Assembly (NCBI GenBank): GCA_022615805.1
Contig: JAKEGO010000152.1
Location: 1 to 34,277 of the forward strand
Direction: 5' to 3'
Length of the DNA stretch: 34,277 nt
Source: Thermoplasmata archaeon
Lineage (GTDB): Archaea > Thermoplasmatota > JAKEGO01
Positions 11,153 to 34,277 of this stretch are shown here, in pieces (position 1 is the first letter of the stretch; every line of letters starts with the position of its first letter). The notes under the pieces were generated by a model. The model did no database searches, was not told the origin of the DNA, and saw only the letters and a list, made by a program, of their open reading frames with translations. A program made the position numbers and the translations under genes.

Positions 11153-11153
11153 G

Positions 11154-14855: not shown

Positions 14856-14859
14856 CGTC

Positions 14860-15699
14860 ATGCGGACGCCTTTCGAGCGCATCAGGGAAGCGCTCACCCT
14901 CCCGGGCGACCTGGCCGCCCTCCTCCCGCGCCGGTGGGAGCTCATCGGCGACGTGCTCCTGCTGAAGTTCGATGACCGTCTTTCTCAGCATTACGCGGAG
15001 ATCGCCAGGGCATATGCCAGCGTCCTCGGGGCCAAGACGGTGCTCAGGGACATGGGTATATCAGGTCGGTTCCGCACGCCGAGCGTCGAGATCCTGATCG
15101 GGACGGAGACCGTCACCTGGCACCGGGAGAACGGTGTGGTCTTCCGGACCGACCCGGCGCGGGTGATGTTCTCGAGCGGGAACATCGACGAGCGAATGAG
15201 GATGGCGACGATCGCCCGGAGGGGCGAGTTCGTCGTGGACATGTTCGCGGGCATAGGCTACTTCATCGCCCCGATGGCCGTCCACTCCGGCGTCGGGGGC
15301 AGGGCCTACGAGCTCAACCCTGTGTCACACGGCCTTCTTCTGGAGACCCTCGAGGCCAATGGGGTCGCCGGGCGCGTCGAGGCCCTCAACGCCGACTGCC
15401 TCACGGCCGAGGAGAGCGTGGCCGACAGGGTCGTGATGGGGTACCTCACCGACACCGAGATGTATCTGGAGAAGGCATTCCGGATCCTCCGCCCGGAGGG
15501 TGGGGTAGTCCACTGTCACACCGCCTGCCCCGTCGAGCTCATCCCGGAGAGGCCGCTCGCCACGGCCGCCGCCGCCGCGCGGCGCGCCGGCGGCGCGCAT
15601 GAGGTGCTCCTCGTCCGCGAGGTCAAATCGTACGCGCCCGGGGTCGATCACATCGTCCTCGACATCGCGTTCAGGGCGCATGTCCCCCGCGACCCGTGA
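14860..15699 (+). CDS. Met-10+/Trm5/Taw2-family SAM-dependent tRNA modification enzyme (tRNA m1G37 methyltransferase or wyosine-pathway Taw2)
   Basis: 'WELIGDVLLLKF', 'VTWHRENGVVFRTDPARVMFSSGNIDER' and 'GEFVVDMFAGIGYFIAPMA' are the Trm5/Taw2 (Met-10+ like) motifs. The ~279 aa size favours Taw2/Trm5a-like. It starts 4 nt after arcS. Confidence 0.75.
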   Translation: MRTPFERIREALTLPGDLAALLPRRWELIGDVLLLKFDDRLSQHYAEIARAYASVLGAKTVLRDMGISGRFRTPSVEILIGTETVTWHRENGVVFRTDPARVMFSSGNIDERMRMATIARRGEFVVDMFAGIGYFIAPMAVHSGVGGRAYELNPVSHGLLLETLEANGVAGRVEALNADCLTAEESVADRVVMGYLTDTEMYLEKAFRILRPEGGVVHCHTACPVELIPERPLATAAAAARRAGGAHEVLLVREVKSYAPGVDHIVLDIAFRAHVPRDP

Positions 15700-21500: not shown

Positions 21501-24500
21501 GCGGCTCCAGCGCTGTTCGACATCATGGTCTTCTCATACGAGAGGCCAGCGTGGATCCTCGGCAACGTCACGCAGACCCGTGTGGGCACGGTCATCCCCC
21601 TCGCGGCGGTCCACGTGACCAGGGAGGACGGCCAGTTGCTTCCGTTCACGGTCATGACCGACCTCGACGGCTCGTACATCGCCCCGGTCGAGTATCCGGC
21701 GGCCGGCAGGCTCGAGCACTCGCTCGACGTGAGCAAGCGCGGGTACCAGGACGGCGGTGCAAACGCCAACGTCACGCCCGCCCTCATCGAGGTCACCGCA
21801 GACGTGGAGCTCGAACCGGTCGACGACTGGACGCAGCTGTGGGGCAACCGCGAGCACACGTCCTCGACGAACCTACCCGCGAACATGTACGCCCAGGGCG
21901 TCAAATGGAAGGCATACATCGGTGGATACGCAGGTTGGGGGGTCATCTACGACGTCAACCTGGACACCCGGAACGACCTCGTCATGGTGTACGGCGATCG
22001 GGTCGTCGCCAAGACGCCGGACAACGTCCTCCTGTGGGTCGGAGAGACGAACGACGTGGACCGCATCATCGGCATCTACGACCTGGACAAGAACGGGATA
22101 CCCGACATCGTCGCGGCGAAGCAGAACCCGGCCAGGATAGCGATCATCAACGGCGTCAACGGGTCACTCCAGTACGAGCAGACATGGCCCACGGGCAGCC
22201 TGCACCAGTATGCGCCCGACAACATCGTCGTCGACGACTTCGACGGCCTCGTGGACGGCAAGTACGAGATGATCGTCAAGCTGAACGACGGCCGGCTGAG
22301 GGCATGGGGCTTCGACACCAGAGGGTGGAAGGCCATACCCAGGACGATGTGGGAGATCCCGTATGCCTACGCCGCGAAGAACAGCATCGCGGTCGGGGAC
22401 GTCGACCTCGACGGCGTCAAGGACGTCGTCGTGCTCTACACATACGGCGTCTCGGTGTACGACGCGGAGGACGGGAGCTTCAAGTACGAACGCACCCTGG
22501 CCGCCAGCCCGTACATGATCGGCGGCTCCGTCATCATCCGCGACATAAACGCGAGCGACGGGCGCGGGAACATAATCATCCCGTACTCCGAGCCGAACAA
22601 CAACTGGTACCAGAACAACGATTACTACACGCACGATGGGGTCATGGTCCTCGAATGCAACGCGTCGACGATAGGCCTCAAGACGGACTACGTGGTCGAG
22701 CACGGCGGCTACGGGAACCAGATCCTCTGGGAGTGGATGGAGGGGTGCGTGGCCGACCCGGACGGCGACGGGGTCCTCGAGTTCGTCGGGAGCATGAGGA
22801 ACATCAGCTCCGCTGCGGCAAGGGCGGGGGCGAACCACTGGTACACGGTGATCATCGACCTGGAGAACGGCGTCAAGGAGGGCCAGTACGGCAGCCCGAC
22901 GACCGGCCAGTGGGAGATAAAGACCGTCGCGAACCTAGATGCCGACCCCGAGGAGGAGATCGTGCTCCAGTCGGGGCAGGACTGGGTCTGCCTGGACGGT
23001 AATGAGACCGGCTACCACGTCAAGTGGACGGCCAGCGGGTACACCTACGCGTACTGGAACCGCTTCTACAAGGCCGAGCAAAACCCGGCGGAGTGCTGGT
23101 TCAACTCTGGCCAGTACTACTGGCTATGGTACCAGGTCTACGGCCCGAACGCGCACGGCGACATCGACGGCGACGGCATCGACGAGCTCTTCCTGACGAA
23201 GGCGGGCAACATCACGGCGAACCACGCCAACGGGTCAGCCCTGGAGGAGGTATGGAGGTTCGTTCCCCCGACGAACAATCCGATGCCGAACGTCTACATG
23301 CGCGACATCGGCAACCTGACCGGCGATCCGAGGAAGGAGGCCGTCATCGTGACCGACGACGGCTACCTCTACGTCGTCAACTCCACCGGGAGCTACCGGA
23401 CCGTGAGGACGGGCGGCTCGAGGTCCAACATCTGGGTCGCCGACATGAACGTCGACGGCATCAAGGAGATACTCGTCCAACTCCCGCACGAGACGTGGCT
23501 GACCGTGCTCAACGCATCCCTTGCCGACTACCACAACGAGCCCGTCTCAACGCCGCTCAGGCACATGCACGAGGACACGCACTTCTTCATCGACTACGAC
23601 TCGGACGGGAGGGTCGAGCTCATCACGAAGAACTGGGGGACGATCTACTGCTACGAGTGGGACGGCGCCTCATGGGTGCAGGAATGGCGCCTCGACCGCC
23701 GCGATGTCTACCGGAGCAAGGTCCAGCGCCTCTACGAGTGGAACCAACTGAGGGTAGGCAACTTCAACGGTGACGAGTACCTCGACATCTACGTAAGGTT
23801 CAACAACTACTCGTACAGCCAGCCAAACGAATGGTCCAAGTACACCACAGGCTGCTGCGTGTTCGACGGGAAGACGCGGCGCACGATATGGGCGAAGGAG
23901 GGCATGTCGGCCAGGTACGCCGTCGTGTACGACTACGACAACGACGGGCTCGACGAGATGGTCATCCAGGACGGGACGACCTACAGGGTCTTCGACCCCC
24001 TCATCGGGGAGTACATCTACACGATGGGGAACAGTCCGACCTACTCGTACGGCGGCCAGATGGTGGGGAACGCCGACCATGACGCCATGGACGAGTTGCT
24101 GGTGGCCTACCAATACTACTCGGAGAACGTGATCGGGTCGGCCGTGGACATGACCACGGGTGCGACGCTATGGTACGGTGGCGATACCACCCGTAGCACC
24201 TACAGCGCGGAATCGGCCCATGGGGCGGCGGCGGACGTCGACGGCGACGGTATCGCCGAGATCATCCAGACGATGACGGACGGCCGGGCATACTGCATTG
24301 ACGACAACGGCCTCGTCCTCTGGGAGTTCGACCTCGGCGTGGACGAAACGGTCCTCTCGCCCCCGAGCGCCGCCGACCTCGACTCCGACGGCATCCCGGA
24401 GGTGCTGTTCGGGTCGTCGGACGGCTATATGTACGTCCTCGACGGCAACAACGGGAGCGTCGATTGGACCTTCCACTTCGGTTTCGGGTCGGGCCAGCCG

Positions 24501-26234
24501 GTCATCGTGGACGTGGACGGCGACGACGAGGGCGAGGTCCTCATCTCGGTCGCCGACGGCTACATCTACTGCATCGACAATGTCGACGAGGTCGAGCTCA
24601 TCCTCCGCGAGAAGGACGTCGAATCCGTCGTCAACCAGCCGGACGGCAACACCGTGACCATCGGCGTCGACGTACGCAACGAGGGCGGCATCCCCGCGAC
24701 GGGGGTCATCGTCCGTTTCACCGACAACGGCGCGACATTCCACGAGGAGACCATCAACATCTCCCGCGGAGGCGTCAGGCACCTCGACGTCAAGTGGATA
24801 TCGCACCCGGTCGGCAACCACACGATCAACATCTCCGTGGACCCCGAGGACCTCATCCCGGAGCTCGACGAGACGAACAACAACTTCACGCGCACCATCT
24901 ACGTGTGGCCGGTCCCCGACATGGCGATATCTAACAAGTCGAAGTGGGAGATAAACCCCGACGTCACTTTCGGTCTCGGGCCGTTCCTCGGCCACGAGAA
25001 CCGGCTGGACGTCACCGTACACAACCTCGGACCGGTCATCGCCGAGAACTTCTACGTGAACCTCACGGACAACAACTACACGGTGGACTCCCAGCTCATC
25101 ACCCTCGGAGCATACGAGAGCGGGACCTACTCGCTCTACTGGACCCCGGTCAGGGACCCGAAGAACCTCACCCACACCCTCGAGATATGGATCGACAAGG
25201 AGAACAGGATATTCGAGTCCGACGAGATGAACAACCACGTGATACTGAAGGCCGTCACCTTCGGCCCGCCGCCAGAGATCGAGCTCAGGAGGCAGGACAT
25301 CACGCTATCGGGGAACGTCGAGATGCCCGACGTGCCGAAACCCGGGATGCCGGAGGCCGACATAGGCGTCATCGAGGGCGACCGCCTCAGGGTGGACATG
25401 ACGCTGCGCAACACCGGCTTCCTCGTCGCGGCCTATGTCGGCATGCTCGTCTGGGTGGATGTCGACAGGAACATGAGGTTCAACGGCAAGTACGACGTCT
25501 ACATCAACCTCGACCCTCTCTACAACTCGAGGGACCGGTGGTCGAGATCGGTCGAGATCATCCCCTCGGGGAAGATCAACGTCACCCAGGAGCAGCCGGA
25601 GAGCATACGGATAGACACCGCCACGCTACGCGACCGCATCGTGAGGAAGTCCGGCACCGACGCGATCCTCGCCTACCCCCTGATCATCGAGATGGACCCG
25701 ACCGACATCATCCCGGAGCGCGACAACAACAACAAGGTGAAGATCGGCGACCTGCTCGTCATTCCCATCGAACCCGAGGTCTCCGTCAGGGCGCTCGAGG
25801 TGTTCCCCGACTTCATCGACACGACGATCATACGTGTAGACACCCGCCTGTGGGTGATCGTGAGGAACCTCGGAGCCGCCCCCGCAGAGGGCGTCATCGT
25901 CAACCTGACGGACAACGGCAACTTCGTGGGCAGCGTGACGCTCGACGTCCCCTGCGTGAGCCACACCAGGGCATACGTCGACGCCTACGCGGTCGCATAC
26001 TTCACCTTCAGCCTCAACAACGACGACCAGCACGTGATGCGCGTCGTGCTGGACTATCCCGGCACGGAAGCCCAGACCATCCAGGTGAACAACGACGCGG
26101 AGGTCGAGCTCCACGCCGTCGGGAAGTCGCTATCGATGAGCGGGTTGGACCTCGCGCCATTGCACATCCTCCTCGTCGCGCTCGGCGTGGCCCTGCTGAG
26201 GTCTCGCGCCCGGCGTCCAGAGGACGCTATTTGA
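18579..26234 (+). CDS. giant (2551 aa) secreted, C-terminally anchored surface protein: CarboxypepD_reg-like x3, FG-GAP/VCBS beta-propellers, discoidin (F5/8 type C)-like domain, PQQ-like propeller, CARDB-like Ig array
   Basis: Signal peptide: 'MRRTAWFLAWLMMTSTLAPLF'. CarboxypepD_reg-like: 'IEGFVLDREGAPLSGATVTF...TDERGFF...LPAGSYDV'. Calcium-binding FG-GAP loops: 'DFDNDGDYDLV', 'DDFNEDGDWDFIF', 'GDVNNDGHADLV', 'DFDNDGTVDII', 'DIDGDGDMDLLV'. Discoidin-like: 'NPQWVAIDLGG...VSAIDY'. CARDB-like: 'VRNEGGIPATGVIVRFTDNG...ELDETNNNFT', 'VHNLGPVIAENFYVNLTD...ESDEMNNH' and 'VRNLGAAPAEGVIVNLTDNG...VNNDAE'. The C-terminus has a TM helix plus an RSRARR tail. There are many N-x-S/T sequons. Confidence 0.85.
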   Translation: MRRTAWFLAWLMMTSTLAPLFTTNSTADGTEGAAPLRAGHIEGFVLDREGAPLSGATVTFDGGFLTNTDERGFFSSALPAGSYDVMATMTGHSPAVIRDVVDGETVTVHLVPRGWMEAGDEFMDGTHTNTQHLADGVRLAAAVDPVLPQDEWFFSTSNDYMSGSSWLERNDNKGRVWYVDINGDGTFGTKDELNADYEDFEIAVDGYTLNQRGLPMADFDNDGDYDLVIPYIWYDGSWHTTNNLRFVENLGKDGDGHRVFAAPVEIPGTAVNLANYMYDAAVDDFNEDGDWDFIFCGANDDLRFMEGNGDGTFSLHVITNNAPGSQVRGKGAGDVNNDGHADLVMIERTTGGVYVYYGDGAGNFPANPTFLFTAYSELYGTVTYRDPYGLAVADFDNDGTVDIITNDGSPALYSLWLGDGTGAFEFAGPKFDLSNHGAIDPFDIDGDGDMDLLVIESASGGTIWSVSNWDDGETWTTGSIIKSSSSTHPGTYGIATPPVLPVYETTGTYTSSVHDTGSAQSVITLVTFGSRTNANQGIGVDVRSSNDPGMAGASAWEPVTSHDNVISTPAGRYVQYRARFTSTMRSTPVLDSVTIHYQTNPAWVTGTVSNTGGYAVPGARVGFWSGGLEVAWDTSDASGDYRIGVSAGDYSLRAACDDYNPYKENVTVIANALKDIEISYRNFIEHTLPDDFMGGTFDNARIATTFAGELELATNIALGTTVFSNRSSSYEYDFPYMVDGTITRRFESTVNAGPDTGYMNPQWVAIDLGGMNDVSAIDYRMSYLTRFWQNGFVIAVRTGYDPVAGTFSGGEEIVSFPKWTWTSGSECPDDLLLVQGATFRASSGANVSGWLPATPSVNGRYVVISNVYGNDTNSATWHRYRVAEVSVYTPSMTGEYVSAPWNVTDPARQVSCVQWHSDVPAGTTLEVAIRAADTEALLAAEPWTVVEDREHGFAPAIRGQFVQYRVSMSSADGIAAPALFDIMVFSYERPAWILGNVTQTRVGTVIPLAAVHVTREDGQLLPFTVMTDLDGSYIAPVEYPAAGRLEHSLDVSKRGYQDGGANANVTPALIEVTADVELEPVDDWTQLWGNREHTSSTNLPANMYAQGVKWKAYIGGYAGWGVIYDVNLDTRNDLVMVYGDRVVAKTPDNVLLWVGETNDVDRIIGIYDLDKNGIPDIVAAKQNPARIAIINGVNGSLQYEQTWPTGSLHQYAPDNIVVDDFDGLVDGKYEMIVKLNDGRLRAWGFDTRGWKAIPRTMWEIPYAYAAKNSIAVGDVDLDGVKDVVVLYTYGVSVYDAEDGSFKYERTLAASPYMIGGSVIIRDINASDGRGNIIIPYSEPNNNWYQNNDYYTHDGVMVLECNASTIGLKTDYVVEHGGYGNQILWEWMEGCVADPDGDGVLEFVGSMRNISSAAARAGANHWYTVIIDLENGVKEGQYGSPTTGQWEIKTVANLDADPEEEIVLQSGQDWVCLDGNETGYHVKWTASGYTYAYWNRFYKAEQNPAECWFNSGQYYWLWYQVYGPNAHGDIDGDGIDELFLTKAGNITANHANGSALEEVWRFVPPTNNPMPNVYMRDIGNLTGDPRKEAVIVTDDGYLYVVNSTGSYRTVRTGGSRSNIWVADMNVDGIKEILVQLPHETWLTVLNASLADYHNEPVSTPLRHMHEDTHFFIDYDSDGRVELITKNWGTIYCYEWDGASWVQEWRLDRRDVYRSKVQRLYEWNQLRVGNFNGDEYLDIYVRFNNYSYSQPNEWSKYTTGCCVFDGKTRRTIWAKEGMSARYAVVYDYDNDGLDEMVIQDGTTYRVFDPLIGEYIYTMGNSPTYSYGGQMVGNADHDAMDELLVAYQYYSENVIGSAVDMTTGATLWYGGDTTRSTYSAESAHGAAADVDGDGIAEIIQTMTDGRAYCIDDNGLVLWEFDLGVDETVLSPPSAADLDSDGIPEVLFGSSDGYMYVLDGNNGSVDWTFHFGFGSGQPVIVDVDGDDEGEVLISVADGYIYCIDNVDEVELILREKDVESVVNQPDGNTVTIGVDVRNEGGIPATGVIVRFTDNGATFHEETINISRGGVRHLDVKWISHPVGNHTINISVDPEDLIPELDETNNNFTRTIYVWPVPDMAISNKSKWEINPDVTFGLGPFLGHENRLDVTVHNLGPVIAENFYVNLTDNNYTVDSQLITLGAYESGTYSLYWTPVRDPKNLTHTLEIWIDKENRIFESDEMNNHVILKAVTFGPPPEIELRRQDITLSGNVEMPDVPKPGMPEADIGVIEGDRLRVDMTLRNTGFLVAAYVGMLVWVDVDRNMRFNGKYDVYINLDPLYNSRDRWSRSVEIIPSGKINVTQEQPESIRIDTATLRDRIVRKSGTDAILAYPLIIEMDPTDIIPERDNNNKVKIGDLLVIPIEPEVSVRALEVFPDFIDTTIIRVDTRLWVIVRNLGAAPAEGVIVNLTDNGNFVGSVTLDVPCVSHTRAYVDAYAVAYFTFSLNNDDQHVMRVVLDYPGTEAQTIQVNNDAEVELHAVGKSLSMSGLDLAPLHILLVALGVALLRSRARRPEDAI
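19101..19973 (+). repeat. FG-GAP/VCBS-type repeat array (first beta-propeller) inside the giant gene
   Basis: At least six D-x-[DN]-x-D-G-x-x-D loops are spaced about 45-60 aa apart (aa ~175-465). Confidence 0.7.
24591..26114 (+). repeat. array of ~5 CARDB-like Ig-fold modules inside the giant gene
   Basis: The pattern 'V.(V/L)(R/H)N.G......V.(V/L).(T/V)D' followed by '(E/D).(D/N)(E/N).NN' recurs (aa ~2005-2512). Confidence 0.6.
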
Positions 26235-27414
26235 GGACCTCCCTCCCGCAGGTGAAATCCCTGCCGGGGGACAGCGCGTCGAAGGCCTCCCCGTCGATCG
26301 ACGGGGACCCCGTCGTTATGAGCGATGCCAGGTTCATGCCCACTCCGGGCCCGAGCATCAGCCCCTGCCCGCACATGCCGATCCCGAGGTACAGACCCTC
26401 AACGCATGGGTCCATCCCGATTACCGGGACGCCGTCGGCGGTCATCGGATAGAGACCCCGCCATATCCTCCTGACCGTGAGGTTCCTGAACCTCGGTATT
26501 AGGTCGACGAGGCGGCGCGCGACGGTCGGCATGAACTCCCCCGTGCTCCGCCGGTCCTCCCCCGGGAATATCCTCGCGGGCGTGTAGCAGAAGATGACCT
26601 GCCCCTCGGAGTTCTGGCCGAAATAGAAGTTCGAGGTCCTGCCGTCGGGCCCAGGCCTGAGGTCGACGACCAGCGGTCCCAGGAACGGTCGGACGGGGGC
26701 GCTGATCCCCGCCTCGTGGCTGTCGGGCAGCACCGGTATATCGAGCCCCGCCATGGAACATATCCCGGAGGCGTGTGCGCCTGCCGCATTGACGACTGCC
26801 GCCGCCCGGTGCTCGTGCGCCTTCCCGTCAGGCCCTCGCGTCCGCACCCCCACGACCGCGAGGGACCCGCGTTCGCCCTCCGTCACGAGGCCCGTGACGC
26901 TCTCCCTGAAGCGGAACTCGGCGCCGAGCCGGCGCGCCTCGTTGGTGAATGACTCCGCGGCGAGGAGCGGGCTGACCTGGCCGTCGTCGGGCGAGAATGT
27001 GCCTCCCAGGAGGCCGCGCGTCTCGATCCCGGGGACGAGGCGCCCTATCCGGTCCGCCTCGCACCAATCGATGTCGAGGCCGTGCGCTCTCTGGACCGGC
27101 AGTATGCCCCGGAGAGCCTTCTCCTCCCTCTCCCGGAAGGCGGGGAAGCAGTAGCCACCGGCCTTCCAGCCGATGTCCGTCCCGGTCCTCTCCTTCCACG
27201 TGGAGAAGACGCCGAGGCTCTGGGAGCACAGCAATATCTTCGCAGGGTCCGAGTGAGTCGCCCTCACGCCGCCAATCGCCGACTTGTTCTGCCCCTGTCC
27301 GGAGGACGCCAGCTCGTCGACGACGAGGACTTTCATGCCAGCCTCGGCTAGGAAGTACGCGGTGGGCAGGCCGACGGATCCCGCCCCGATGACGATGACG
27401 TCGTGCTCCGTCAC
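26227..27414 (-). CDS. DAO-family FAD-dependent oxidoreductase (SoxB / HcnC / OoxB / PdhB-like catalytic beta subunit)
   Basis: The N-terminal Rossmann fold is 'HDVIVIGAGSVGLPTAYFLAEAGMKVLVVD'. Its 395 aa length and overall DAO layout are typical. The GTG start overlaps the upstream stop (GTGA). It ends with TAG and converges on the giant gene with an 8-nt overlap. Confidence 0.8.
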   Translation of the reverse strand: MTEHDVIVIGAGSVGLPTAYFLAEAGMKVLVVDELASSGQGQNKSAIGGVRATHSDPAKILLCSQSLGVFSTWKERTGTDIGWKAGGYCFPAFREREEKALRGILPVQRAHGLDIDWCEADRIGRLVPGIETRGLLGGTFSPDDGQVSPLLAAESFTNEARRLGAEFRFRESVTGLVTEGERGSLAVVGVRTRGPDGKAHEHRAAAVVNAAGAHASGICSMAGLDIPVLPDSHEAGISAPVRPFLGPLVVDLRPGPDGRTSNFYFGQNSEGQVIFCYTPARIFPGEDRRSTGEFMPTVARRLVDLIPRFRNLTVRRIWRGLYPMTADGVPVIGMDPCVEGLYLGIGMCGQGLMLGPGVGMNLASLITTGSPSIDGEAFDALSPGRDFTCGREVLK

Positions 27415-29522
27415 CGTTCCTCACCTCCCAGGAAGGCGGAGAGCGGGACCTCCTGCGAGAACGGCCTCTCGACGTGGGGCTGGACCTCTCCGGGGGGCGC
27501 GCCCGCCTCCCGGAAGATGCGCATGACGAGCTCCTGGCACGTCTTGCCGCCGCAAGGGCCCATACCGGTCCTCAGAGCGGCCTTCAGCGAGTTGAAGTCC
27601 CGGACCCCGTTCGCGCGGATGTAATCCATGATCTCGCCCTTGGTGACGCGTTCGCATCTGCACACTATGGCATCGCCGTCGTCCGCGGCCCTCGTGGGCG
27701 TGGGCGAACGGCTGCCGAGCGGCTCGCGTATCCGGACGCCCGCCACCGACGTCGCCTCCGCCGATCGGACCTCGACGGATAGCAACCCCCTCCGGTCCTG
27801 CCACCGCGCCTCCTTGACCGCGATGACCAGGCCCCGCCCCACGACCTCGCCCTCCATCCCCGTCGTCGTGACCTCCTGCCCCGGGACGACGGTGCCTTCC
27901 GGGAGCTCCCACGGGAGGACGACGAGCGCCGTCCGTCCCGAGGGGTCGTAGCGTCGGTCGACGACCGTGATCGCGAGGCCCGGGCATACGGCCACGCAGT
28001 TGAGGCAACCGACGCACTCGCCGGAGAAGCCCGGCCTCCCGTTGAGGTTCCCCTCGGGGATGGATATCGACTGATTGACGCACGCCCAGGTGCACGGATT
28101 GCAGGGGATCTCCTGGGCGCACCGTATCACCGGGAACACGTCGAGGCCCTCAGGGAGATCCCTCGGTCCCAGGACCGGCCCGGGCTTCCCCCTCAGGACC
28201 GCCAGCATCTCGTGCCACTCGGGTGGGACGTCCACATCGCGCCCCAGGTCCCTGAGGACCTCCCTCCCTGCGATACGGCCGGAGAACATCGCGGCGGACG
28301 CCTCCGCGATGACGTCCGCGTCGCCCGCGGATAGGACTCTGAAGCCGTTCCTCCGGGCTTCGCGAGCGAGCTCGTCGATCGGGGAGAGCCCGACCGCGAT
28401 GAGCAGCGTGTCGGCTTCGAAGACCGCCTCCGTGCCCTCGATCGGGCGGAAACGCTCGTCCACCTGCGCGATGACTACCCGCTCGAGGCGCCCATCGCCC
28501 TCGGCCCTCAGGACGGTGTGCGACGTGTAGACCGGAATCCCCAGCCTGAGCAACTTGTCGAGGTGGACCTTGTAGCCGCCGCACCGGGGCAGCGCTTCGA
28601 CGATGCCCAGGACGTCGATGCCCGCCTGGAGCGCGTGGTAGGCGGCGATGAGGCCGACGTTCCCCCCACCGACGATGAAGATGCGGTCCGCCGCGCGGAC
28701 CATGTCCCTGTTCACGAGGGTCTGGAACGCGCCGGCGCCGTAGACCCCTGGGAGATCGCACCCCGGGAAGGTGAGGGCCTTCTCCCGCGCCCCCGCGGCC
28801 ACGAGGATGCGCTCCGTCCTCACATTGACGTACCGGCCCTCCCGCACGACGCCGACGACGCCGTCCGAGAAGACCCCCACGACCGGGGACCGGAGCCACA
28901 CATCGACGGTCCCGAGCTGCGAGACGGCCAGGGCGAGGTCGTCGCCGATGTCCATCCCCCGCTCCCCGGCCGAGCAATCCCTGGTCGAACCGAAGAAGTT
29001 GTGGGTCTGGAGGCTCAGCTTGCCCCCGAGCTCCGCTTTATCGTCCGCGAGGATGCAGCGCACGCCCATGGACCCCAGCTCGATCGCGGCGCTCAGTCCG
29101 GCTGGCCCTCCGCCGACGATGAGCACGTCGGCGGCGTGCTCCTCGATTTGGGCGGACATGACGCCAACGGGCTCGTCCACCTCGGGGAGGGCGGGGAGGC
29201 CGCCGAGCGTCCGGACGTCGATGCCGGCGGCGACGGGCGTGACGCACGACTTCACTGGTACGCCGTCGACGAGGACGAGGCACTGTGCGCACTGGCCGTT
29301 GGCGCAGAAGATCCCCAGGGGAGCGCCGTCGCGGTGGTGCCTGCCCAGGACATGGACGCCGTTGGCAAAAAGCGCGGTGGAGATCATCTCCCCCTCGCGC
29401 GCGGTCATCGCACGGCCTTCGAACGTGAACTCGACGGTCCCCCTGCCGTCGACGCCCCCGAGGATCGGATGCTCGCGAACGCGGAACTTGCCGTCGGACG
29501 GCGCCTTGCCCCGTTCGATCAT
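27411..29522 (-). CDS. fused [2Fe-2S] (SoxA/HcnA-type) - FAD/NAD(P) pyridine-nucleotide-disulfide oxidoreductase - 2x[4Fe-4S] ferredoxin - BFD-like [2Fe-2S] protein (HcnA+HcnB / PdhA+PdhF+PdhX-like)
   Basis: 703 aa starting at 'MIERGK' (ATGA overlap with the upstream stop). Motifs: 'CANGQCAQCLVLVDGVPVKSC'; 'VLIVGGGPAGL' and 'IFIVGGGNVG'; 'CNPCTWAC' and 'CVGCLNCVAVCP'; 'CRCERVTKGEI...GMGPCGGKTC'. The track's 1260-aa ORF (to 31193) is an out-of-frame extension over the upstream gene. Confidence 0.8.
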   Translation of the reverse strand: MIERGKAPSDGKFRVREHPILGGVDGRGTVEFTFEGRAMTAREGEMISTALFANGVHVLGRHHRDGAPLGIFCANGQCAQCLVLVDGVPVKSCVTPVAAGIDVRTLGGLPALPEVDEPVGVMSAQIEEHAADVLIVGGGPAGLSAAIELGSMGVRCILADDKAELGGKLSLQTHNFFGSTRDCSAGERGMDIGDDLALAVSQLGTVDVWLRSPVVGVFSDGVVGVVREGRYVNVRTERILVAAGAREKALTFPGCDLPGVYGAGAFQTLVNRDMVRAADRIFIVGGGNVGLIAAYHALQAGIDVLGIVEALPRCGGYKVHLDKLLRLGIPVYTSHTVLRAEGDGRLERVVIAQVDERFRPIEGTEAVFEADTLLIAVGLSPIDELAREARRNGFRVLSAGDADVIAEASAAMFSGRIAGREVLRDLGRDVDVPPEWHEMLAVLRGKPGPVLGPRDLPEGLDVFPVIRCAQEIPCNPCTWACVNQSISIPEGNLNGRPGFSGECVGCLNCVAVCPGLAITVVDRRYDPSGRTALVVLPWELPEGTVVPGQEVTTTGMEGEVVGRGLVIAVKEARWQDRRGLLSVEVRSAEATSVAGVRIREPLGSRSPTPTRAADDGDAIVCRCERVTKGEIMDYIRANGVRDFNSLKAALRTGMGPCGGKTCQELVMRIFREAGAPPGEVQPHVERPFSQEVPLSAFLGGEER

Positions 29523-32500
29523 CGCTCCCCCTCCATCGAAAGCAGGACAAGCCGATACGGGTCCGTGACCTCCATCGCGTCCGTCCTCCACGCGCCCTCC
29601 CTCCTCGTCATCAGCATGTGCGAAAGGCAGTTCGGCGACGTGCACGCCACTAGCGATGCGCCCGCGGCCGCCGCCTCGGCGACCAGGGCGTCGGACGCGC
29701 GTCGCGCTTCGGCGTCGGAGGCCGCGAGCCCGGTGCTGCCGCAGCTCCCCTTCAACGTGACGACCCTCGCGCCCGCCATCTCGAGAAGGCGCCGGAAGGG
29801 CGTCAGGAACGGATCGTCCTCCATCGAGCATGCGCCGTGGAGTCCCACGGTGAGGCCCAAGGGCGCCATGTCCCCCCCCTCGATCGCCGACATCAGGGCC
29901 TCCGGCAATGCCGTCACCTCGATGCCACGCGCACTTTTCATCGAGGCGAACGCCTCTGGCGTCGAGATCACGAGGCGCGACGGGGATGCCGTGGACAGTG
30001 CCTTGCGGTTGAGCCGGGCGATCCGTTCGACGGCCTTCCGGCGCGATGGGTCCCCGTCGGCCGCGAGCCCTCTCGACGGGCACGCCAGTCCTGGCACGCC
30101 CCCCTCCGCGACGCCGGTGCCCAGCGCAAGCCTCCGGGCCGCGTCCCTCATCGGCACGAGGTCGAAGAGGTCGTGGAGGGCGCCGACGGCGGCGAGCATC
30201 GGGATGCACCCCTCGAAGAGCGCCGGGCGACCCTCCCCGGCGGGCTCGAGACCGCCGAACGGGTCGTCCATCGGCCCATCCGGGCGTGATGCCATCAGCC
30301 GGATGGCTGCGAGCGCGTCCCCGAGAGGGCCGATGCCGCCGGGCGTGGCGGGGAGGTCCAGCGGCTCGAGGCCGATGGCGTCGAGCCGTCTCGCGAAGTC
30401 TCCAAAGGCGACGCCCGGGTCCGTCCCTGCAGGCACTGCGGCGTAGCCTATCCGCTCCGGGGAGACCCCCGAAAGCGAGACGAGCGCCCTGGCCCCGGCC
30501 ACCGCCTCGGCCGGCCCCTTCCCTCGCTCGATGTAATGAGAGCCGCAAGACGCGTCCGGCCCTACGACGAGGACGCCGCGGCCAGCGGCGGCGAGCGCTC
30601 GGACGAGGAACGCCGGCGTGGGCCGTCTTTCGTGCATGACCTCCACGATCCCATCGCGGCCGCCGAAGGTGGGAGCGGGCAGGGTCCAGAGCGCGGCGAA
30701 GGCGATGTCGCCATCCGCCGTCCGGACCTCGCGCACCCTCCCGAGCACCGCGCCATCGGACATCGGCCCCTGGGATATCGCACCAGTGGGGCAGATGGAA
30801 ACGCAGGCGCTGCAGGACGAGCACGCGTCGTGGGCCACTTCCGCCACTGGCGTCTCCCCCTTCCGTACGACCGTGGAGATGGCCCGGTACGCACAGGCTT
30901 CCTCGCAACGGCCGCAACCGATGCAGAGCGTGGCGTCGACGGCCGCCGTGAGGGTGCGCAGGCCGACGGTCCGTTCGCCGCCATCGGTCACGACATCGAT
31001 CGACCCGAGGCCGCCGAAGGCGACCTCGCGTGCCAGTTCCGGCGGCACCTTGAGAAGGAAGGAGGCGCCACGGACGGTGGCAACGAGCTGCTTCGAGCCG
31101 CACGTCGGGACGCAGACGTCGCACAGGGCGCACGGGCCGCAGGTCAGGCACCGCGACGCCTCGCCGACCGCAACGGTCTCGTCCATCGTGCACGTGGCGT
31201 CATCGAAGCACGATGCGTCGGAGGGGCCGTGGCGCGTCTGGCCGCCCTCCCGCGGCCTCCCGCGCAGGGACCCCGGCCTGAGCACCACCGGCACGGGGAC
31301 GGCACGGGGGTCGGGAGGGACGAAGGCCCTGCCCGCCAGGTACGCGTCGATCCCCGCCGCGGCCACGTGGCCGCGCCCGATGGCCTCGACGACCGTCGCC
31401 GGCCCGAGCTCCACGTCCCCGGCAGCGAAGACTCCGGTGACAGAGGTCGCACAGTCATCCCCGACCGCAACGAGGCCGCCGCCCGTGGTGAATCCAGGGC
31501 CGCAGGCCGTTCCGACATCGGGCATGGCTCCGATCGCGGTCAGGACGTGGTCGGCCGCGATCTTGAACTCGCTCCCCTTCACGGGTTCGGGGCGGCGGCG
31601 GCCCGAGCCGTCAGGCTCGCCGAGCCTCGCACTGATGAACTCGACCTCCGTGACCCGCCCTCCCTTCACGACCACCCTCTTCGGGATGGCGAGCGTCCTC
31701 ACGGCGACCCCCTCTGCTTCGGCCTCGGCCACCTCCTGGGGGTCGGCCGGCATCTCCTCCCTCCCGCGGCGGTAGGCCAGGGTGACCTCCGCGCGGAGCC
31801 TCGCCGCCGTCCTCGCGGCGTCGACGGCCGTCGAGCCCCCGCCGATGACCACCGTGCGCCCCCTCAGGTCCGGGCGCTCGCCACGGTTGACTGCCCTCAG
31901 GAGGGCGAGGGCGTCCATGACCCCCTCCGCGTCCTCCCCCGGGATGCCAAGGGGCATCGCCAGGGGGGCGCCTCCAGCGACCAGGACCGCGGAGTATCCC
32001 TCGGTAAGAAGGGCGACGGGGTCGTCAACCCGCGTTCGCGTGCGGACCTCGACGCCGAGGCCCCTGATCCAGTCGATCTCGCGGGCCAGGACCCTCTTGG
32101 GCAGGCGGTAGGGCGGTATCCCGTAGCGGAGCATGCCGCCGGGCTCGTCCCCGGCCTCCATGACCACCACCCTGTACCCAAGGTGGACGAGGTCGACGGC
32201 GGCAGTAAGGCCGGCCGGTCCGGCGCCGACGATGGCGACCCTCTCCTCGTGGAGGACGGGGCAGGGCTCGGCGACCGCAGGCCTCCGGGCCAGCTCGAAG
32301 TCGGCGGCGAAACGCTTCAGGTCGCGTATCGCGACCGGATCGCCGGTTTCGGACTGCTCGCATCCCGCCTCGCACGGGCGCGTGCAGACGCGGCCGCAGA
32401 CGAGGGGGAACGGATTGGCCTCTCGGATGACATCGACGGCCTCCTCGAACCTCCGGTTCGCTATCAGGCCGATGTAGGCCTTGACGTTGACGCCGGCCGG

Positions 32501-32704
32501 GCACTCCCGCGAGCAGGACGGCGCCCCCCTCACCTCCATGACGTAGGCTTCGGAAGCACCGCGCACCTCGCCCCTGCTCCCTCCCAGGAGCCCCACGGCA
32601 TCGAACCCGGTCTTCGCTGGCAGTGCGATCCCTCCGTAATTTCGGTCATCCCCGCGCATCTCAGGCCCGCGCCGCCCCTTTCGCGCGCCCGCATCCCAGG
32701 CCAT
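29519..32704 (-). CDS. 1061-aa fusion: GltD/NfnB-like NAD(P)H flavoprotein - Cys-rich/2x[4Fe-4S] ferredoxin - MvhD(FlpD)-like domain - HdrB/GlcF-type CCG-like domains
   Basis: GltD/NfnB N-terminus: 'CSRECPAGVNV..YI.LI...FEEA...I...NPFP.VCGRVC..PCE..C'. Rossmann sites: 'RVAIVGAGPAGL...EAGDEPGGMLRYGIP.YRLPK' and 'TVVIGGGSTAVD'. Also 'VFAAGDV', 'CLTCGPCALCDVCVPTC', and 'CIGCGRCEEAC' / 'CSSCSACVSICPTG'. The MvhD-like domain is 'FLVRALAAAGRGVLVVGPDASCGSHY'. The CCG-like tail is 'LHGAC...KGSCGS...LVACTSPNC'. The start at 32704 is supported by TATA geometry. ATG 32539 is an alternative. Confidence 0.75.
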   Translation of the reverse strand: MAWDAGARKGRRGPEMRGDDRNYGGIALPAKTGFDAVGLLGGSRGEVRGASEAYVMEVRGAPSCSRECPAGVNVKAYIGLIANRRFEEAVDVIREANPFPLVCGRVCTRPCEAGCEQSETGDPVAIRDLKRFAADFELARRPAVAEPCPVLHEERVAIVGAGPAGLTAAVDLVHLGYRVVVMEAGDEPGGMLRYGIPPYRLPKRVLAREIDWIRGLGVEVRTRTRVDDPVALLTEGYSAVLVAGGAPLAMPLGIPGEDAEGVMDALALLRAVNRGERPDLRGRTVVIGGGSTAVDAARTAARLRAEVTLAYRRGREEMPADPQEVAEAEAEGVAVRTLAIPKRVVVKGGRVTEVEFISARLGEPDGSGRRRPEPVKGSEFKIAADHVLTAIGAMPDVGTACGPGFTTGGGLVAVGDDCATSVTGVFAAGDVELGPATVVEAIGRGHVAAAGIDAYLAGRAFVPPDPRAVPVPVVLRPGSLRGRPREGGQTRHGPSDASCFDDATCTMDETVAVGEASRCLTCGPCALCDVCVPTCGSKQLVATVRGASFLLKVPPELAREVAFGGLGSIDVVTDGGERTVGLRTLTAAVDATLCIGCGRCEEACAYRAISTVVRKGETPVAEVAHDACSSCSACVSICPTGAISQGPMSDGAVLGRVREVRTADGDIAFAALWTLPAPTFGGRDGIVEVMHERRPTPAFLVRALAAAGRGVLVVGPDASCGSHYIERGKGPAEAVAGARALVSLSGVSPERIGYAAVPAGTDPGVAFGDFARRLDAIGLEPLDLPATPGGIGPLGDALAAIRLMASRPDGPMDDPFGGLEPAGEGRPALFEGCIPMLAAVGALHDLFDLVPMRDAARRLALGTGVAEGGVPGLACPSRGLAADGDPSRRKAVERIARLNRKALSTASPSRLVISTPEAFASMKSARGIEVTALPEALMSAIEGGDMAPLGLTVGLHGACSMEDDPFLTPFRRLLEMAGARVVTLKGSCGSTGLAASDAEARRASDALVAEAAAAGASLVACTSPNCLSHMLMTRREGAWRTDAMEVTDPYRLVLLSMEGER

Positions 32705-32722: not shown

Positions 32723-32750
32723 CCGTTATATGACTGCGTATAAAAATCCT
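32723..32750 (-). promoter_or_regulatory. promoter region of the redox operon (two TATA-like elements: minus-strand CATATAAC and TTTTTATA)
   Basis: AT-rich elements are centred about 25 and about 39 nt upstream of the minus-strand ATG at 32704. Confidence 0.5.
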
Positions 32751-32850
32751 TTGGACCTCGTCGAGCCCGTCGCCGGACCCGTTCGCATCATCCGCGTCAT
32801 TGAATAAAAATCAAGCGTCGGCCGAGAGGCGTCTCCGTTTCGACGGTAAT

Positions 32851-32860
32851 GTTTATTATC
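32851..32860 (+). promoter_or_regulatory. TATA-like element (GTTTATTATC) for the 32891 gene
   Basis: Lies about 35 nt upstream of ATG 32891. The SD-like AGGTGAGG (32881-32888) is directly before the ATG. Confidence 0.45.
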
Positions 32861-32890
32861 CGAGGAGCGCGATGCATCCGAGGTGAGGCC

Positions 32891-33610
32891 ATGCTCGACT
32901 TTCTCCATGACGGAGAGGTCGTAATAAAGGTGCTCCTCCAGGTGGACCGCCCGGAGGACTACTGCGAGGAGATGACAGGGCTGTTCCACGACCTCAAGGA
33001 GGTCCACGACAGGGCCGTCAGGATCATTGAGGTCCGCAAGGTCCGAGGGAACACCCTGCTGATATCGAGGGAGCGCTACTACCTCGTGTACCTGATCCTC
33101 CATACCCGAGCCGACATGACGGCCCTCTTCCTCCGGATGGCCGGGTCGGCCGAGAGGGAGGACCTCCTCGACACGATGACCCTCGGCTCCTTCCTCCAGT
33201 TGCGGCTTTACATGGGCATGGACGATCCCCGGCGGCAAATGATCGAGGACGCCGCCCGCTCGGACACGTCCCGCGAGCGGCTGGCCGAGTTCAGGAACGG
33301 AGCGCCCATTCTCGGCTCTAGGGGCCAGATAATCACGCCCGAGTTCCTGGCCAAGCTCGACGCCCATGTGAACGCGCTCGACCACCGGGCGGAGACGCTC
33401 GTGACCGAATTCATGAGCCGGCCGGTCCCCTCCCTCGGACGCGCATGGTTCCCCCTCCGGAGGTATGCCACGGCCCCGATGCGGGAGCGCGAATGGATAG
33501 GATTGGACGTCGCCGGGGCGAACCTGACCTCCTTCCACGGCGCCCTCACCCGGCTCCGCGGGGTCCTCGAGAGCGAATGCGGACTGCAGGCCCCGGTGGA
33601 GCCCTGGTGA
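32891..33610 (+). CDS. hypothetical protein (239 aa), no recognised family
   Basis: ATG 32891 with an SD-like element is preferred over the track start 32849, which overlaps the TATA. GC3 is coding-like. The gene is divergent from the redox operon. The N-terminal ~100 aa are faintly Roadblock/LC7-like ('RIIEVRKVRGNTLLISRERYYLVYLILHTRADM'), which is speculative. Confidence 0.5.
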   Translation: MLDFLHDGEVVIKVLLQVDRPEDYCEEMTGLFHDLKEVHDRAVRIIEVRKVRGNTLLISRERYYLVYLILHTRADMTALFLRMAGSAEREDLLDTMTLGSFLQLRLYMGMDDPRRQMIEDAARSDTSRERLAEFRNGAPILGSRGQIITPEFLAKLDAHVNALDHRAETLVTEFMSRPVPSLGRAWFPLRRYATAPMREREWIGLDVAGANLTSFHGALTRLRGVLESECGLQAPVEPW

Positions 33611-33702
33611 ATGTCCGACGGAAATGGTCCTATGCCATGGAACTGACGGGCGACCCGGCGCGAGCGGGACCGGTCATGGCAGGCCCGGCACCCGCCGATG
33701 CA

Positions 33703-33852
33703 TCACGATCCCGGTATCAGCCCGAAGTGGAAGAGCGCCCACACGATGGCGATGAGGACCGCCACCGTGATGACGAACTTGATGATCTTGATGATGATGA
33801 ACACGATCAGCAGGAGCGCCAGGATCACGAACAGCAACAGGAGCCACGGCAT
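33703..33852 (-). CDS. very small hydrophobic protein (49 aa, two TM helices)
   Basis: 'MPWLLLLFVILALLLIVFIIIKIIKFVITVAVLIAIVWALFHFGLIPGS'. A TATA box (minus-strand CTTTATAG, 33873-33880) about 24 nt upstream of this ATG implies a leaderless mRNA. The track start 33909 would include the TATA. The local GC drop could also make this ORF spurious. Confidence 0.4.
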   Translation of the reverse strand: MPWLLLLFVILALLLIVFIIIKIIKFVITVAVLIAIVWALFHFGLIPGS

Positions 33853-33872
33853 GCCACGATATCCCCAGGAGT

Positions 33873-33880
33873 CTATAAAG
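33873..33880 (-). promoter_or_regulatory. TATA box for the 49-aa hydrophobic ORF
   Basis: The plus-strand CTATAAAG reads as CTTTATAG on the minus strand, about 24 nt upstream of the minus-strand ATG at 33852. Confidence 0.35.
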
Positions 33881-33911
33881 AGGTTACGCCCGGCGAGGCT
33901 GCGTCCCATAA

Positions 33912-34277
33912 TTAGCCCACCGCCTTTTCAAGCCTGATCCTGACCCGGAACCTGATCCGGAGGCAGACGTTGTGTGCGACGACCTTCAACCCGACCTCCC
34001 TGGACTGGTTCCACCTCTTCCTGCTGTACAGCCTGCATCCCCAGAGCCTCTTGAACGACGAGTTCGTGGCCTCGCAGTTGCTCCTCTTGCGATACACCCT
34101 CTCGAATCCTTTCCTCCTCCGTCTGTAATGCAGGATCATCCGTCTCCAAGCCGGATGTCCCTTCGCCAGAGCGGTGGCATCCTTCCTCGGCTTCAGGAAC
34201 GGTCTGCCGCCGAGGTCGGCCACGGACTGCGCGTTTTTCCTGGACGAGTAGGCTGTGTCGGCGCAGACCGGACCAAG
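33912..34277 (-). mobile_element. C-terminal part of a DDE transposase (IS4/IS5-like), truncated by the right window edge
   Basis: The frame is open from 34277 with no in-window start. Translation gives 'LGPVCADTAYSSRKNAQSVADLGGRPFLKPRKDAT...YRKRSNCEATNSSFKRLWGCRLYSRKRWNQSREVGLKVVAHNV'. This is the 'aDkgY...n' third-acidic-region context followed by 'Y..R..vE..fs.lKr.fg..l.sr....q..E...k....N', typical of IS4/IS5-type DDE transposase C-termini. Stop is TAA. Confidence 0.65.

Follow-up and report, generated by a model that had tools for sequence, protein, structure and literature searches.

The window analysed here, a 34,277-nucleotide contig of a Thermoplasmata archaeon (JAKEGO010000152.1 of assembly GCA_022615805.1; GTDB lineage Archaea, Thermoplasmatota, JAKEGO01), codes on its minus strand for three overlapping genes, g1, g2 and g3, whose products are a variant form of the heteromeric amine dehydrogenases of DAO type, distinguished by an NADPH- and Hdr-derived subunit that is obligatorily linked and without precedent. 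The anatomy of these proteins, the conservation of their ligands, the strict three-gene linkage and the predicted folds are established, and we assign a probability of about one half to the reading that the trio forms one soluble complex coupling an amine/imine site electronically to an NADP(H) site through an iron-sulfur (Fe-S) wire. The three genes are:

29519-32704, minus strand: g1, 1061 aa (1046 aa from M16), a multi-domain Fe-S flavoprotein
27411-29522, minus strand: g2, 703 aa, starting MIERGK, a fused alpha-type subunit (SoxA/PdhA/HcnA+HcnB-like)
26227-27414, minus strand: g3, 395 aa, GTG start, a DAO-family FAD beta-type catalytic subunit

The order g1-g2-g3 occurs in all 20 distinct contigs with enough sequence to show it, with zero counter-examples; the linkage of g1 to DAO/HcnB-type genes, which a sequence-only reading of this DNA had set beforehand as a test of its proposal, thus holds at 20 of 20 loci. 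Full-length homologues of g1 number more than 70 (about 1000-1070 aa, 33-55% identity), come from independent assemblies and in many cases give FlpD and CCG matches, and g2 is represented by more than 120 clusters (at 90% identity) that are 59-75% identical to the protein from the window and nearly all 690-697 aa long. Across loci, identity is 57-72% for g2 and g3 and lower, at 36-55%, for g1. A locus scan with an alignment of the ferredoxin-plus-MvhD region, covering one genome per GTDB species, returned 80 loci, 63 of which were discarded as ferredoxin-only matches from Firmicutes and other bacteria. The 17 true trio loci all belong to metagenome-assembled genomes labelled Thermoplasmatota, Thermoplasmatales, Thermoplasmata or Methanobacteriota, and tblastn places g2 and g3 directly 3' of g1 in every scan locus with enough sequence, loci cut off by a contig end (three) or by an assembly gap of 100 N (one) being left out of the trio count. 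Look-ups that started from g2 homologues found g1 upstream and g3 downstream in three of three cases. All named carriers of the trio are uncultured. Some at least of the shorter g1 homologues (about 870-950 aa, without Fer4_20) owe their length to a miscalled start: for contig L008, the single case checked, tblastn recovered the N-terminus upstream.

In seven neighbourhoods collected from g1 homologues the three genes are constant and the flanks vary, including the RNA polymerase-L30e-NusA operon, Pus10, FeoAB, Cas4-like genes and fumarase. The trio lies directly downstream of, and on the same strand as, rpoB-rpoA'-rpoA''-L30e (L7Ae family)-NusA in at least five distinct Thermoplasmatota contigs (L003/L094, L004, L008, L092 and L093), a position whose recurrence across five or more lineages points to a role in core metabolism. 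The window and contig L001 differ: there the trio adjoins a giant surface-protein gene instead of following the RNA polymerase operon. Every domain named in the sequence-only reading is present, and the survey of domain architectures and neighbourhoods found the trio to be recurrent. Its view that the trio has no characterised counterpart also stands as far as literature searches for the module combination go: they found no published description, the related result being the different HdrA-NfnB fusions of ANME-1.

The g1 stop (GAG CGA TGA) overlaps the g2 start (ATG ATC) as ATGA at 29519-29522, and the g2 stop (CGG TGA) overlaps the g3 start (GTG ACG) as GTGA at 27411-27414, a GGAGG-like motif preceding each of the two 4-nt overlaps. 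Translational coupling of the trio therefore follows from these start/stop overlaps. Upstream of g1, TTTTTATA at 32739-32746 and ATATAA at 32726-32731 lie 22-42 nt 5' of the g1 ATG (32704):

32726-32746, minus strand: candidate archaeal promoter, TTTTTATA plus ATATAA 5' of g1, read from sequence

The arrangement fits a promoter of archaeal type with a leader that may be short or absent. Read directly from the sequence, the three minus-strand open reading frames (ORFs), both overlaps and the TATA-like box are all as had been noted before. The g1 start is ambiguous: M1, as first noted, is possible, but the database copy begins at M16, 15 codons later. Prediction on all three proteins found no plausible transmembrane segment in g1, g2 or g3.

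The catalytic subunit g3 has the DAO fold of an FAD-bearing beta subunit (PF01266, 1.9e-57, covering residues 5-364). Among solved structures it is by far nearest to PDH1 beta, the beta chain of the L-proline dehydrogenase (PDH) of P. horikoshii (1y56_B, 3.9e-38, about 30% identity), ahead of SoxB (2.6e-19), glycine oxidase (2e-18) and GlpA (1.6e-10). In the W-x-G-x-x-P/A-x-T-x-D motif g3 (WRGLYP) and PDH1 beta (WAGYYA) both carry Tyr at the position held in glycine oxidase (WAGLRP) by an Arg, which presumably binds the substrate carboxylate.

Next to this DAO gene, and joined to it by the GTGA overlap, g2 supplies the alpha-type Pyr_redox flavoprotein and [2Fe-2S] module, with further Fe-S domains on the same chain:

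29208-29438, minus strand: g2 residues 29-105, Fer2_4 [2Fe-2S] domain (C73, C78, C81, C93; PF13510, 2.4e-23), Cys invariant in 19/19 orthologues
28356-29129, minus strand: g2 residues 132-389, two-Rossmann flavoprotein core (GGGPAGL; GGGNVGL; PF07992 Pyr_redox_2, 6.3e-24)
27966-28121, minus strand: g2 residues 468-519, Cx5CxxCxxxC + CxxCxxCxxxCP, putative 2x[4Fe-4S] site with weak, sub-cut-off Fer4 matches
27507-27668, minus strand: g2 residues 619-672, BFD-like [2Fe-2S] domain (C621, C623, C657, C662; PF04324, 1.4e-11)

All 16 Fe-S cysteines of g2, the eight of the putative 2x[4Fe-4S] site included, are invariant across the 19 orthologues. By sequence, the nearest solved relatives of g2 are the sarcosine oxidase alpha subunit SoxA (3e-26 for the N-terminal half) and PH1363, which is the alpha chain of the P. 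horikoshii PDH. The same two head the Foldseek list for an AlphaFold2 model (1vrq_A, 5e-26; 1y56_A, 8e-26), which is of moderate quality (predicted local distance difference test, pLDDT, 71.5, with a poor N-terminal [2Fe-2S] domain) and was used for the top fold matches only. The earlier placement of g2 and g3 among the heteromeric PDH/HcnABC/OoxAB/sarcosine oxidase enzymes is borne out by these matches. The domain scan found no GCV_T/aminomethyltransferase (folate) domain in g2, where Fe-S domains fill residues 468-672; a sarcosine or dimethylglycine demethylase was rejected on this ground. Two further cysteines of g2, C183 and C255 (about 28758-28976), are invariant in 19/19 orthologues and lie outside any recognised Fe-S motif. 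A redox-active pair or a metal site is possible, and we take the Fe site reported for PDH1 alpha to be a parallel.

Among the known systems, the closest is the dye-linked L-proline dehydrogenase of the Thermococcales (PDH1, PH1363/PH1364, 1Y56; T. profundus PdhA/B/F/X), which resembles the trio in the match of g3 to its beta and g2 to its alpha subunit, in the adjacency of the genes and in the absence of a folate domain. The extra [2Fe-2S] and ferredoxin-like parts of g2 we take to be the small subunits of the heterotetrameric PDH, here fused into one chain to which a BFD domain has been added, and activity is predicted for the trio from about 30% identity. The larger difference is the obligatorily linked 1061-aa subunit with its NADPH, Fe-S, MvhD-like and HdrB-like parts; we know of no characterised PDH with a g1-like subunit. 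HcnABC, opine dehydrogenase and D-hydroxyproline dehydrogenase combine the same [2Fe-2S], Pyr_redox flavoprotein and DAO modules as g2 and g3, but as separate subunits of bacterial, respiratory-chain or dye-linked enzymes with no GltD/MvhD/CCG partner; HcnABC, flavin-dependent opine dehydrogenase and D-hydroxyproline dehydrogenase are described as alpha4beta4gamma4 heteromeric members of the DAO superfamily (PMC4575208). In SoxABGD (2GAG, 1VRQ), SoxA is like the N-terminal half of g2 and SoxB like g3, but SoxA has a folate-binding T-protein half where g2 has Fe-S domains; hence the trio is not a demethylating oxidase.

The N-terminal half of g1 is a GltD/NfnL-type module, with Fer4_20, FAD and NADPH Rossmann folds and a YRR motif, and is followed by a cysteine block:

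32288-32524, minus strand: g1 residues 61-139, Fer4_20 (PF14691, E 3.9e-20), GltD/NfnL-type with two [4Fe-4S] clusters
31370-32242, minus strand: g1 residues 155-445, FAD and NADP(H) Rossmann domains (GAGPAGL; GGGSTAVD...AYRR; PF07992 Pyr_redox_2, 4.5e-29)
31100-31150, minus strand: g1 residues 519-535, CxxCxxCxxCxxCxxxC, six Cys invariant in 75/75 and common to the PRK12771 subfamily

In an alignment of 75 full-length g1 proteins C64, C68, C103, C107, C111 and C115 are conserved, and AYRR is kept in every homologue inspected (13 of the 75 sampled). The block at residues 519-535 had been noticed before as having five cysteines; it is present, but with six, C519 to C535. Residues 51-540 are nearest to the NfnL-like domain of NfnA from the Bfu-type NfnABC/StnABC complexes (9n5u_A, 1.9e-100; 9bov_A, 6.7e-97; 8oh5_C, 1.9e-85) and match the bifurcating NfnB/NfnL chains less strongly (4ylf_B, 5e-78; 5jca_L, 3.5e-73). 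The residue that would ligate the FAD-proximal [4Fe-4S] cluster is a lysine, K130 (LKRF), in 75/75 homologues and also in the wider subfamily, in place of the Glu of bifurcating NfnSL, whose NfnL chains read LERF; GIPPYRLPK is the same in g1 and NfnA. In T. sibiricus NfnABC the FAD-adjacent cluster is ligated by Lys-165 in NfnA, as against Glu in NfnL; the NfnA FAD accepts electrons from NADPH and feeds a mid-potential Fe-S path, and bifurcation takes place elsewhere, at an FMN "flavobicluster" (PMC12018979). Because of the Lys ligand, the NfnA-identical motifs and the YRR, the g1 flavin looks like an NADP(H) port rather than a bifurcating centre.

The likeness to NfnA (9N5U, 9BOV, 8OH5; PMC12018979, PMC11829005), with its shared LKRF lysine, GIPPYRLPK and YRR, is confined to residues 51-540: beyond it NfnA has a NuoG/Fdh-like domain, and its partners are NfnB and NfnC, where the bifurcating FMN is located, whereas in g1 the HdrA-ferredoxin, MvhD-like and HdrB-like domains follow and the partner is a DAO enzyme. 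NfnSL/NfnAB (4YLF, 5JCA), GltD and dihydropyrimidine dehydrogenase (DPD) share the fold and cofactors of the g1 N-terminus (FAD, NADPH and two [4Fe-4S]), but in bifurcating NfnL the ligand is Glu and the partner is NfnS, which carries [2Fe-2S] and FAD, in contrast to the Lys and the lack of NfnS in g1. A novel glutamate synthase was considered and rejected, as there is no GltB domain.

The remainder of g1 consists of three modules related to parts of heterodisulfide reductase complexes:

30776-30946, minus strand: g1 residues 587-643, 2x[4Fe-4S] ferredoxin domain (Fer4_21/Fer4_7, 1e-8), all eight Cys invariant
30395-30712, minus strand: g1 residues about 665-770, MvhD/FlpD-like domain without the four [2Fe-2S] Cys, by profile and fold match
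29522-30307, minus strand: g1 residues about 800-1061, HdrB-like double CCG-fold domain with six Cys (833, 875, 959, 988, 1021, 1026)

The ferredoxin domain is homologous to the C-terminal ferredoxin domain of HdrA, HdrA chains being among the matches of the family profile, and residues 580-759 as a whole match the NCBIfam HdrA2 model (residues 565-751; the HdrA ferredoxin domain with fused MvhD) at E 1e-15. For the MvhD-like domain, the FlpD/MvhD Pfam match of the window's g1 alone falls below the cut-off (E 0.0057), but a profile of 73 g1 homologues retrieves the MvhD chains 5odc_D (5e-11) and 7bkb_F (1e-10). An AlphaFold2 model of residues 650-1061 (pLDDT 92.1, predicted template modelling score 0.91) shows the FlpD fold by a Foldseek match to MvhD 5odc_D with a template modelling (TM) score of 0.64 on the target. 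The positions of the MvhD [2Fe-2S] ligands are occupied in the window by A671, H691, P716 and S722, none of them a cysteine.

The C-terminal domain follows the same course. Pfam CCG matches the isolated C-terminus of the window's g1 below the cut-off (E 0.0067) but finds 19 of 21 homologous C-termini, at best with 2.7e-10. Foldseek with the same model ranks M. smegmatis EtfD first (2e-7), followed by HdrB (1.4e-6 to 5e-5), LutA (1.6e-5) and then MvhD; the HdrB matches come from four Hdr structures, with about 285 aligned columns and TM scores of about 0.6 on the target, and contain both half-domains. The MvhD-like and CCG-like assignments of the sequence-only reading, each sub-cut-off when taken singly, are hence upheld by family profiles and fold matches; the folds are there, but depleted of cysteines. 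In place of a complete CX31-39CCX35-36CXXC in both halves, which would comprise ten Cys, the first half of g1 has C833 and C875 only and the second C959, C988(G) and C1021xxxxC1026, with no CC pair. The sequence profile of this domain had no match in the PDB, HdrB, EtfD and LutA being seen by fold comparison only, and an exhaustive single-sequence search of 1.84 billion representatives returned 24 matches, all family members or fragments, with no link to canonical CCG proteins. The domain therefore represents a narrow, strongly diverged CCG lineage.

The g1 family falls into two clades in which these cysteines are distributed reciprocally. Clade A (about 48 of 75 g1 proteins, that of the window included) has none of the four MvhD ligand Cys, mostly reading SSPS (AHPS in the window), and has the six HdrB-like Cys (833, 875, 959, 988, 1021, 1026). 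Clade B (about 25 of 75) keeps the MvhD CCCC and has four Cys in the HdrB-like domain (833, 959, 988, 1026), which are the ones universal across both clades. The MvhD cysteines (671/691/716/722) are thus absent exactly where Cys 875 and 1021 of the CCG domain have been gained. Such a loss together with a gain of two CCG cysteines suggests a cluster relocated on a working electron path rather than decay. With no CC pair and no 5+5 CCG pattern in either clade, two HdrB-type noncubane clusters are impossible.

On this basis g3 would be the substrate-oxidising FAD subunit, a relative of the archaeal L-proline dehydrogenase beta subunit, with L-proline or a similar amino or imino acid as its most likely substrate rather than one of folate-dependent demethylation. 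Its alpha-type partner g2 would carry the [2Fe-2S], the flavin core, the putative 2x[4Fe-4S] site and the BFD [2Fe-2S] on one chain, and together the two would make an alpha-beta core of PDH type, acting oxidatively or reductively on an amino or imino acid that resembles proline. The N-terminal half of g1, by analogy to NfnA of NfnABC, would serve as a reversible two-electron/one-electron NADP(H) port, and the protein as a whole as a redox wire running from the NADP(H) FAD and two [4Fe-4S] clusters through the six-Cys site, the HdrA-type ferredoxin and a cluster-less MvhD-like spacer to the HdrB/GlpC/LutA-like CCG domain, which would hold one or two clusters. The CCG end would dock on g2/g3, since the DAO subunit g3, the BFD/flavoprotein g2 and the 2x[4Fe-4S]+CCG part of g1 parallel GlpABC, GlcDEF and LutABC, with EtfD as a further analogue. 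GlpC, GlcF, LutA and EtfD (9OJN, 9A6L) follow the same logic of a flavoprotein dehydrogenase with a Fer4+CCG protein, although they pass electrons to quinone or to unknown acceptors, whereas the CCG part of g1 is fused to an NADP(H) module and apparently soluble. What we infer in this scheme is which substrate is used, in which order and direction the electrons flow, where the CCG end meets g2/g3 and the specificity for NADPH.

For this coupling of NADP(H) to an amine speak the invariance of the Fe-S ligands along the chain (in 75 g1 proteins and 19 g2 orthologues) and the reciprocal MvhD/CCG pattern, which argues that the CCG end of g1 may lie on a working path; DPD and GltBD are precedents for GltD-type modules in linear NADPH-dependent reductases. 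Three considerations weigh on the other side. The oxidation of amines, with E0' of about -0.1 V, is insufficient for unaided reduction of NADP+, so that a plain wire could work only in the direction from NADPH to the imine, unless a third partner takes part. A simple reduction of an imine by NADPH would hardly seem to call for more than ten Fe-S centres, and the substrate assignment draws on about 30% identity to one characterised enzyme. Within the coupling of NADP(H) to an amine, a plain linear wire and a bifurcating version are about equally probable.

The bifurcating version is possible but tentative. It says that the trio would be a new class of bifurcating or confurcating enzyme in which NADPH, the mid-potential donor, enters through the NfnA-like port and its electrons part at the SoxA/PDH-type flavin between an imino acid at g3 as the high-potential arm (for example pyrroline-5-carboxylate to proline) and ferredoxin as the low-potential arm, or in which the reverse takes place in amino-acid fermentation. 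The flavin concerned would lie in g2/g3 (an interface FMN or the g2 FAD) and not in g1, ferredoxin would exchange electrons with either the HdrA-type ferredoxin domain of g1 or the dicluster of g2, and a third substrate is thereby added. The thermodynamic pattern resembles that of known bifurcating enzymes, the complex is conserved together with its very high cofactor load, and g1 580-759 is homologous to the HdrA2 ferredoxin domain with MvhD, with HdrA matched by profile. There is also a precedent in NfnABC, whose NfnL-like domain passes the electrons of NADPH on to a bifurcating flavin at a distance (PMC12018979).

The strongest indirect argument for bifurcation comes, by analogy, from other phyla, where the N-terminal two-thirds of g1 occur in an Hdr-like, ferredoxin-linked context. 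Bacterial relatives of g1 (loci L089, L090 and L091; FCB group and others) are 774-794 aa long and consist of GltD-ferredoxin-MvhD without a CCG domain. Their clusters run from 2-oxoacid:ferredoxin oxidoreductase delta/alpha/beta/gamma through the GltD-ferredoxin-MvhD protein to a Fer4+CCG protein, a 199-aa FAD fragment and a 624-aa Fer4+FlpD protein, the last two of which together make up a split HdrA-like flavoprotein. BLAST found no similarity between the g1 C-terminus and the Fer4+CCG protein of these clusters, which look like an uncharacterised NADPH/ferredoxin/Hdr-like system in their own right.

Against bifurcation, the ORF list and domain scans found no HdrA core, EtfAB, NuoF/HydB-like or NfnS homologue in the operon, and no gene for a PyrK-like NfnS/NfnA partner with FAD and [2Fe-2S] was found in the operon or related loci. 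K130 takes the place of the NfnL Glu, no MvhD cluster is left, the CCG motifs have degenerated, and confurcation towards NADPH would be slightly endergonic at standard potentials. We know of no DAO/SoxA-type flavin that bifurcates. The comparison with archaeal Hdr systems is likewise partial. HdrABC-MvhAGD (5ODC) and HdrA2 share with g1 the ferredoxin+MvhD segment and the HdrB fold, and clade B keeps the MvhD Cys, but the trio is without an HdrA flavin domain or a separate HdrC and has six (four universal) of the ten CCG Cys. In ANME-1, where an NfnB-Hdr fusion also occurs in archaea and the proteins are distant matches of g1, the NfnB-like domain sits inside HdrA, the genes lie in Hdr clusters that lack a DAO pair, and the architecture is unlike that of g1 (PMC9012536). 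The step from NfnB, MvhD and Hdr modules to bifurcation, which had been taken in the sequence-only reading, is thus not supported by the Lys at K130, the lost MvhD Cys, the six of ten CCG Cys and the missing HdrA and NfnS. CCG and GltD modules are common in non-bifurcating enzymes too, such as GlpC, GlcF, LutA, EtfD, GltBD and DPD. Bifurcation is possible, but it is not indicated by the hallmarks that would be read from the proteins themselves.

Less probable is a dual-donor reductase, in which the amine at g3 and NADPH at g1 would both feed a third acceptor at the HdrB-like domain: sulfur, a carrier of disulfide or persulfide type, or a quinone to which the complex would gain access by associating peripherally with the membrane, comparable to what HdrB, DsrK, SdhE, GlpC and EtfD serve. 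The best fold matches of the C-terminus are in fact a menaquinone reductase (EtfD) and a disulfide reductase (HdrB), four to six Cys are conserved at the chain terminus, and amine oxidation would become thermodynamically feasible. Kawakami and colleagues reportedly described Thermococcales PDH complexes with both proline and NADH dehydrogenase activities, which also counts in favour of two donors. Set against this, g1 has six of the ten CCG Cys (four universal), so that two HdrB-type noncubane clusters are out of the question, the proteins have no transmembrane or obviously hydrophobic segments, and in the seven neighbourhoods, with their varying flanks, no thiol-carrier or quinone-related gene is conserved nearby.

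It is improbable that the trio works like GlpABC/GlcDEF and dehydrogenates something other than an amine, for instance glycerol-3-phosphate or a 2-hydroxy acid. The inventory does parallel that of GlpA (DAO+BFD), GlpB and GlpC (Fer4x2+CCGx2), and GlpA is matched by g2 residues 601-680 at 2.2e-12 and by g3 at 1.6e-10, but for g3 the GlpA match is far weaker than those to PDH1 beta (3.9e-38), SoxB and dimethylglycine dehydrogenase, and g2 is SoxA/PH1363-like in both sequence and fold. The chance of an artefact is negligible, as misassembly, frameshift and chance adjacency are refuted by the more than 70 independently assembled full-length g1 homologues with the same architecture, the more than 120 g2 homologues, the 20/20 gene order and a model with pLDDT 92; the fusions are not assembly errors, a flaw against which the sequence-only reading had itself warned.

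Around the trio, the window holds genes of several kinds. On the plus strand, the gene at 18579-26234 specifies a 2551-aa protein, predicted to be secreted or surface-located, with CarboxypepD_reg, FG-GAP and CARDB domains; it converges on g3, its stop overlapping the end of g3 by 8 bp (26227-26234), and contig L001 has a 2521-aa counterpart in the equivalent position. The region 5' of g1 (32726-34277) is of lower G+C and contains ORFs without a Pfam match, at 32849-33610 (plus strand, 253 aa) and 33912-34223 (minus strand, 103 aa, Arg/Lys-rich). Farther off, 9638-12404 (plus strand) is a typical MoxR/DUF58 cluster, in which a MoxR-type AAA+ ATPase (AAA_3, 7.7e-63) is preceded by a DUF4350 protein and followed by a DUF58 protein, and 13302-15699 (plus strand) holds adjoining tRNA-modification genes for a DUF5591+PUA (archaeosine-synthase-like) protein and a Trm5/TYW2 methyltransferase; a Trm5/TYW2 gene is also found near the trio in contigs L008 and L093. 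In L003/L094 the RNA polymerase A'' gene (4325-7282 in L003) contains an intein with a LAGLIDADG endonuclease and codes for 985 aa, compared with about 479 aa elsewhere.

To our knowledge, the physiological electron partner of the archaeal dye-linked proline dehydrogenases has never been identified. By coupling a PDH relative to a defined NADP(H)/Fe-S subunit, the trio offers a candidate for this long-sought partner, and it is widespread in uncultured, presumably peptide-degrading Thermoplasmatota. It also illustrates how Hdr-derived parts (the HdrA ferredoxin domain, MvhD and HdrB) have been recycled with fewer clusters, including a clade-specific swap. As a possible new bifurcating enzyme the trio is a well-posed test case: if it did bifurcate, an amino-acid-linked family would be added to the short list of such enzymes, and the abundant sediment Thermoplasmatota would have an amino-acid-linked route between their NADPH and ferredoxin pools.

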